IMG/VR virus record: IMGVR_UViG_2690316166_000021
Length of the DNA stretch: 5,125 bases
Reading direction: 5' to 3' (one strand)
Origin: a virus
Taxonomy: Duplodnaviria; Heunggongvirae; Uroviricota; Caudoviricetes
Part shown: positions 1,145-1,231 of the stretch, piece after piece
Position numbering within the stretch: position 1 is the stretch's first letter
How the letters are laid out: every line of letters begins with the position of its first letter
Notes under the pieces: generated by a model
The model's database searches: none
What the model saw: only the letters and a program-made list of their open reading frames with translations
Told to the model about the DNA's origin: nothing
Made by a program: the position numbers and the translations under genes

Positions 1145-1231
1145 CTAACAGTCTGGCGTTTTCTTTTTCAGCAACGGGAAAGCAACAACCACCACACCCG
1201 CCACCAGCACACCGTCAGCCAGCACTGACAT
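1145..1231 (-). CDS. 28-codon mini-ORF encoding hydrophobic peptide MSVLADGVLVAGVVVVAFPLLKKKTPDC (single predicted TM helix plus basic tail)
   Basis: ATG 1231..1229, stop TAG 1147..1145. No convincing Shine-Dalgarno (only GGA 2 nt from the ATG). May be a chance ORF in G/T-rich sequence. Confidence 0.15.
   Translation of the reverse strand: MSVLADGVLVAGVVVVAFPLLKKKTPDC

Follow-up and report, generated by a model that had tools for sequence, protein, structure and literature searches.

The 28-codon hydrophobic ORF upstream of an STnc100-type sRNA in a lambdoid prophage is most likely the remnant of a decayed tciB-like (DUF3927) gene

Gene content and organisation of the window

The window, by which we mean the complete stretch of 5,125 nucleotides under analysis, is part of a lambdoid prophage that reads on the minus strand, and contains three masked blocks. 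The following features were identified, listed in the direction of late transcription:

5061 to 4240, minus strand: Q antiterminator (Pfam Antiterm, E=6e-55)
near 4133-4160: terminator-like hairpin
1312-1442, minus strand: C-terminal end of the phrog_2873 gene, occupying the place of terB in intact loci and running on into a masked block
1277-1304, minus strand: 3' relic of terB (its last ~25 nt) and ancestral start region, from alignments with intact alleles
1145-1276, minus strand: 43-codon ORF with GTG start at 1276, annotated by PGAP as 'DUF3927 family protein' (WP_000562553.1)
1232-1276, minus strand: N-terminal 15 codons of the 43-codon ORF (MIAYCFCEWHCSSRI), scrambled relic of helix 1, not hydrophobic
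1145-1231, minus strand: 28-codon ORF (ORF28) with ATG at 1231 and stop codon ending at 1145, homologue of transmembrane helix 2 and the KKK tail of DUF3927/TciB (profile positions 26-53)
1080-1144, minus strand: spacer between the ORF stop codon and the sRNA, 66 nt, including TTGACT
889-1079, minus strand: STnc100 (RF02076)/PasD-related sRNA, full-length Rfam match from 1079 to 889 (136 bits), with an intrinsic terminator from 919 to 900
151-486, plus strand: IraM-like gene, a 111-aa ORF with relatives annotated as anti-adapter protein IraM

In homologous loci the gene order is Q, tRNA genes, cargo genes, the ORF28 equivalent, the sRNA, an iraM-like gene and/or a nanS-p-type esterase gene, holin and lysozyme, with the holin gene starting at least 2.5 kb 3' of ORF28, past the sRNA, iraM-like and esterase genes. 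Given its position downstream of Q, the ORF28 region is probably within the Q-dependent late transcription unit, and would be present in mRNA during induction. The phrog_2873 ORF is complete in one related locus (L001, 5479-5832, minus strand), where it encodes 117 aa and matches PHROG 2873 from end to end (E=6.6e-70); it belongs to a family of unknown function and is not annotated by PGAP in the homologous E. coli records. There is no copy of the ORF28 gene in the DLP12 and Qin late regions of E. coli K-12, and catalogues of K-12 small proteins are therefore unlikely to be of help.

Three further observations concern this layout. A weak, sub-threshold match to the Rfam 'Trp_leader' family (4133-4239, minus strand, 21.8 bits) corresponds to a GC-rich hairpin with a U-run located 3' of Q, and by position this is probably a tR'-type late terminator rather than a trp leader. 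The IraM-like ORF matches PF11183 (PmrD-like fold family) in the precomputed hits, and lies between the sRNA and the esterase and lysis genes in an orientation opposing that of the late operon. Finally, a genuine hokD gene is present at another site in homologous prophages.

The 28-codon ORF belongs to the DUF3927 family

The original prediction was that of a 28-codon hydrophobic ORF on the minus strand, and the ORF listing contains it exactly as quoted, with the translation MSVLADGVLVAGVVVVAFPLLKKKTPDC (1231 to 1145). The predicted hydrophobic core followed by KKK was also confirmed, with hydropathy reaching its maximum of 2.7 (15-residue window) across VLADGVLVAGVVVVAFPLL, immediately ahead of the three lysines. 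ORF28 is the portion of the annotated 43-aa form (MIAYCFCEWHCSSRIMSVLADGVLVAGVVVVAFPLLKKKTPDC) that starts at the internal ATG at 1231. Even on its own, the 28-aa peptide matches the Pfam family DUF3927 (PF13064) with 58.3 bits (E=7.3e-16, curated cut-off 25 bits), and the 43-aa form does so with 95.6 bits (E=1.7e-27); PHROG 1470 ('TciB-like') was matched with E=7.8e-13. It had been suggested that G/T-rich DNA could give rise to such an ORF by chance, but when the unmasked window was shuffled by mononucleotides 300 times, no comparable ORF (a hydrophobic 17-mer plus three K/R residues) arose, and together with the PF13064 match this makes ORF28 more than a chance occurrence.

ORF28 belongs to a family that is already catalogued and annotated in RefSeq, as either 28 aa or 43 aa. 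A megablast search of 5,426 complete E. coli genomes found the window region in thousands of records, with the ORF annotated as 'DUF3927 family protein', and in a protein search the identical 28-aa form was annotated on 529 contigs, next to many variants of 23-64 aa, all of them from E. coli or Shigella. A literature search for the peptide string gave no match.

Intact DUF3927 proteins are paired with a TerB-domain protein

Intact relatives of ORF28 read MTVKMRLAVVALLLFLVVMV(VMV)DFSSRIMSVLADGVLVAGVVVVAFPLLKKK..., and consist of two hydrophobic helices with a DFSS loop between them. Intact members, including TciB of phage P1, are 50-57 aa in length with two transmembrane helices (typical members of the family at large measure 49-64 aa and span both), and hydropathy reaches 3.5 in their helix 1, versus below 1 in the N-terminal 15 codons of the window copy. 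ORF28 shows homology to the second helix and the basic tail of these DUF3927/TciB proteins, and its proposed small membrane-protein origin is borne out in this respect. P1 TciB matches the full DUF3927 profile (positions 1-53, E=7e-31). The family is small, with 94 clusters at 50% identity among 1.84 billion representatives, and its most conserved part is the helix-2 motif SVLADGVLV. Proteins of 119-176 aa with DUF3927 hits were considered as possible fusions with TerB, which was rejected as their N-termini are unrelated (histidine phosphatase, ABC ATPase); they look like chimeric or frameshifted calls.

We gathered 98 loci from species-representative genomes, IMG/VR and E. coli, and in all loci with a TerB hit (82/82) the two-helix ORF is located directly 3' of the TerB gene, the two genes overlapping by 4 nt or lying no more than 11 nt apart. 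TerB identity in these 82 paired loci ranges from 41 to 100%, and the pairing was seen in Escherichia, Franconibacter, Pantoea, Enterobacter and metagenome bins. In the intact pair, the sequence GTGA combines the GTG startcodon with the stop codon of the 143-aa TerB-domain gene, and GGAG lies ahead of it. Comparison of divergent intact genes gave a median pN/pS of 0.33 with a pS of 0.5-0.7, where synonymous sites are near saturation; the intact gene is therefore a real protein-coding gene under purifying selection.

In P1 the gene order is tciA (TerB domain), tciB and tciC, and the similarity of TciA to TerB is the sole basis of the family name. All three genes were non-essential in a CRISPRi screen of P1, scored by plaque formation for tciB (PMC10695390), and close to half of the tested phage-plasmids of P1 subgroup 1 are without the operon (PMC9603915). 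A PADLOC search with TerB and TciB returned one weak match (E=0.003) and no other match to a defence system.

Two TerB-less remnants were found besides the window type: in an E. albertii locus (L013, 2900-3130) the gene has a frameshift and is joined with a fragment of a tRNA, and in a Pseudescherichia locus (L016, 2908-3126) it has no startcodon and directly follows a 192-aa ORF. TerB-less copies have thus decayed independently on at least three occasions. As intact DUF3927/TciB genes were found only in combination with TerB, and as copies without TerB have decayed independently, the pattern suggests that TerB and TciB work together, with TciB probably being a membrane partner of the TerB-domain protein.

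Lesions of the window allele

Alignment of the window with intact alleles shows homology starting ~25 nt ahead of the end of terB, and TerB is encoded neither in the window nor in any of the 15 window-type loci. The ancestral Shine-Dalgarno sequence is mutated from GGAG to GGAT (1301-1298) and the ancestral startcodon from GTG to GTT (1289-1287), and an 11-nt deletion after the ancestral start has removed codon Met5. Two further deletions, of 4 and 14 nt, shift and then restore the frame, and have turned helix 1 (VVALLLFLVVMVVMVDF) into IAYCFCEWHC. Only helix 2 and the KKK tail of the two-helix architecture survive, and the window copy is neither coupled to a terB gene nor equipped with the family's startcodon and Shine-Dalgarno sequence. 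A DNA tract of ~210 nt, beginning at codon 12 of the 43-codon ORF (CAGCAGCCGG...), is 100% identical between the window and an intact allele (L099); it takes in ORF28 with its stop codon and reaches through the 66-nt spacer to the middle of the sRNA.

Translation signals and allelic variation

The duplex with the anti-Shine-Dalgarno sequence at the ancestral start has a predicted energy of -6.4 kcal/mol with 7-nt spacing, compared with -3.0 kcal/mol at the GTG at 1276 and -3.3 kcal/mol with 1-nt spacing at the ATG at 1231. Since 52% of all window positions reach -3 kcal/mol, the energies at both candidate starts are at background level, and neither start has a usable ribosome binding site, in agreement with the poor ribosome binding site noted for ORF28 in the original prediction. 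The apparently invariant MSVLADG sequence raised the option of a conserved internal start as in holin-like dual-start genes, which was dismissed as the Met is not conserved: it is Leu in P1 TciB, and Leu or another residue in several other members. There is therefore no sign of a conserved internal start.

Variation within the window allele was assessed in 115 copies (51 haplotypes), retrieved with a junction-specific pattern. ORF28 showed no excess conservation, and no other segment of the locus is as polymorphic, with 0.16 segregating columns per site in ORF28 versus 0.06-0.11 in the flanks. The changes within ORF28 comprise six synonymous and six non-synonymous substitutions (M1I, L4P, G7S, G7C, V16I and V16A) and one 3-nt deletion, and the upstream 15 codons of the 43-codon form contain an E8-to-stop change. 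The 6:6 ratio of synonymous to non-synonymous changes leans towards constraint without reaching significance (binomial p=0.08); with a total of 12 changes the power of the test is low, and exchange with intact alleles is a confounding factor. An open frame is kept by ~95% of the 115 copies, but as the copies are >99% identical, this carries little weight for a frame of 87 nt. Beyond this set, frameshifted and internally deleted alleles are on record (P0021, P0023), and the Leu-to-Pro and Gly-to-Cys forms are annotated on at least 1000 and on 795 contigs, respectively. Frameshifts or stops in otherwise conserved homologous regions had been named beforehand as speaking against ORF28 as a gene, and this is in part what was found, with stops, start loss and frameshifts all represented. 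Of the 5426 complete E. coli genomes, 1185-1211 carry the window allele, which also occurs in a single sequenced phage (mEp460_ev081); intact alleles are present in 761-1078 genomes of the same set, with a median of three copies where there are any.

These data bear on whether the truncated ORF, as either 28 or 43 aa, is translated into a single-pass membrane micropeptide with a function of its own, for instance in modulating co-resident TerB-TciB modules. Such a role would be in line with the mostly open frame, the 6:6 substitution ratio, the wide distribution of the allele in a genome set where intact alleles are also common, and the retention of the helix-2 motif as the best conserved part of the family. 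Against this, a Shine-Dalgarno sequence is missing at both starts, the internal Met is not a family feature, alleles with start loss, Leu-to-Pro and Gly-to-Cys changes are common, polymorphism is highest in ORF28 itself, and the other TerB-less copies decay in different ways, and we consider a functional micropeptide highly unlikely. There is a very slim chance that a helix-2-only peptide starting at ATG 1231 is made at induction and acts as a stand-alone micropeptide, for example by pairing with or poisoning the intact TciB of other prophages; if so, about one in five E. coli genomes would keep a truncated 'decoy' allele.

Toxin and lysis functions

ORF28 was originally proposed to be a type I toxin or an accessory phage lysis peptide, and its hydrophobic helix with a basic tail, as well as its location in a prophage, are in line with this. 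However, its homology is to a different family, the intact members of which have two helices and are paired with TerB. Type I toxin systems would further be expected to show an antisense RNA or a regulated leader, but the Rfam search of the window (E<=1) gave none of the antisense or antitoxin RNA families such as Sok, Rdl and Sib, and the plus strand has no promoter-like site between 834 and 1442. The neighbouring sRNA is on the same strand, downstream of ORF28 and not overlapping it, and no special RNA fold, and hence no structured leader, was found in the ORF region (z=0.24). With regard to lysis, ORF28 is located outside the holin-lysozyme-spanin cassette, and P1 tciB is not required for plaque formation (PMC10695390). 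Both roles are thus extremely improbable.

The downstream small RNA

The sRNA was predicted to lie on the same strand with ORF28 upstream of it, which is correct, but the distance from the stop codon to the STnc100 match is 66 nt rather than the ~150 bp given. An STnc100/PasD-type sRNA was also observed directly after the terB-DUF3927 pair, on the same strand as the pair, in several divergent lineages:

L005: 4240-4449
L019: 3170-3364
L072: 3237-3424
L084: 3195-3370

It was not found after the pair in eight other lineages, nor in P1. The sRNA may represent the 3' end or a 3'-UTR-derived product of the cargo operon, or may be transcribed from a promoter at the end of tciB. Three side observations were made on this element. 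First, the 3' half of the sRNA, including the terminator hairpin, is part of an 86-nt direct repeat (519-604 and 897-982, 99% identity), the copies of which flank a masked block of 229 nt. Second, a partial 'hypothetical protein' pseudogene in RefSeq (935-1063, plus strand) lies opposite the sRNA, and is probably not a real gene but a false prediction on top of a structured RNA gene. Third, in one terB-tciB lineage (L019) a match to the AgvB (anti-GcvB) sRNA (3365-3426, minus strand, 96.5 bits) is located immediately after, and convergent with, the STnc100 element.

The proximity of the sRNA raises another reading, in which the stretch persists as a cis-acting, non-coding sequence for the STnc100/PasD-type sRNA, either as a promoter-upstream region or as a 5' precursor. 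The stop-to-sRNA spacing is 66 nt in the truncated allele as well as in closely related intact E. coli alleles, the match to the sRNA model begins 5-90 nt past the tciB stop codon in other lineages, the DNA from codon 12 into the sRNA is identical to that of an intact allele, and a promoter-like pair (TTGTGA-18-GATAAT, 1259 to 1230) lies inside the ORF. That pair matches at only 9 of 12 positions, with 0.7 such matches expected by chance in the region, its -35 element is in the decayed part and missing from intact alleles, and polymorphism in ORF28 exceeds that in the spacer and the sRNA. A cis-acting role is unlikely, although it is compatible with ORF28 being a gene remnant.

Evolutionary interpretation

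We conclude that ORF28 is very probably the 3' remnant of a decayed tciB-like (DUF3927) gene, from which, most likely, no meaningful amount of peptide is translated and which would have no function of its own. Its homology, its lesions, its missing partner and its poor translation signals are observed directly, as is the absence of excess conservation; the lack of translation and of function is what we infer from them, and leaky translation from ATG 1231 might conceivably occur.

The gene would have been carried as cargo ('moron') by a lambdoid prophage, in the slot that separates the Q antiterminator from the lysis genes. In its intact state this slot holds the 143-aa TerB-domain gene and a gene for a two-helix membrane protein of 54-57 aa, which would be translationally coupled through the GTGA overlap and GGAG. 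Recombination is proposed to have swapped terB for the unrelated phage gene phrog_2873, after which the 5' half of tciB would have lost its Shine-Dalgarno sequence, startcodon and helix 1. The DNA of the 3' half matches that of intact alleles exactly and would be either young or exchanged only recently, which may be why its frame is still open, and it may also persist through its position directly upstream of the sRNA gene, as untranslated passenger DNA. The ORF itself is of minor importance, being an already annotated, degenerate copy from a catalogued family whose function is unknown, and the value of the analysis lies in annotation: RefSeq entries of 23-43 aa of this type named 'DUF3927 family protein' represent helix-2 fragments, and are best read as pseudogene remnants.

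Comparison with known systems

Type I toxins such as Hok, Ldr, Ibs, TisB and ZorO resemble ORF28 in their small size, single hydrophobic helix and charged end, but ORF28 is not homologous to them, and differs in having no antisense RNA, regulated leader or usable ribosome binding site. Similarly, holins, antiholins and lysis peptides are, like ORF28, small membrane peptides with their genes on the strand of the late operon, but ORF28 is not located in the lysis cassette, is unrelated in sequence and has no dual-start motif.

The closest known relatives are P1 TciB and the members of PF13064 and PHROG 1470, which are homologous to the window ORF over helix 2 and the basic tail (DFxSxxxSVLxDGxLV...WP/FPxxK), and which are found in phage or prophage accessory regions beside tRNA genes, as in the window-type loci. 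P1 TciB and the intact members have two helices and a working start and directly follow the TerB gene (tciA), whereas the window copy is without helix 1, startcodon, Shine-Dalgarno sequence and TerB. The slot and its flanks are shared with the TerB-DUF3927 pairs that lambdoid and Stx-type prophages carry as cargo between Q and their lysis genes; where these have terB, the window instead has the phrog_2873 gene and the ~25-nt relic of the terB 3' end.
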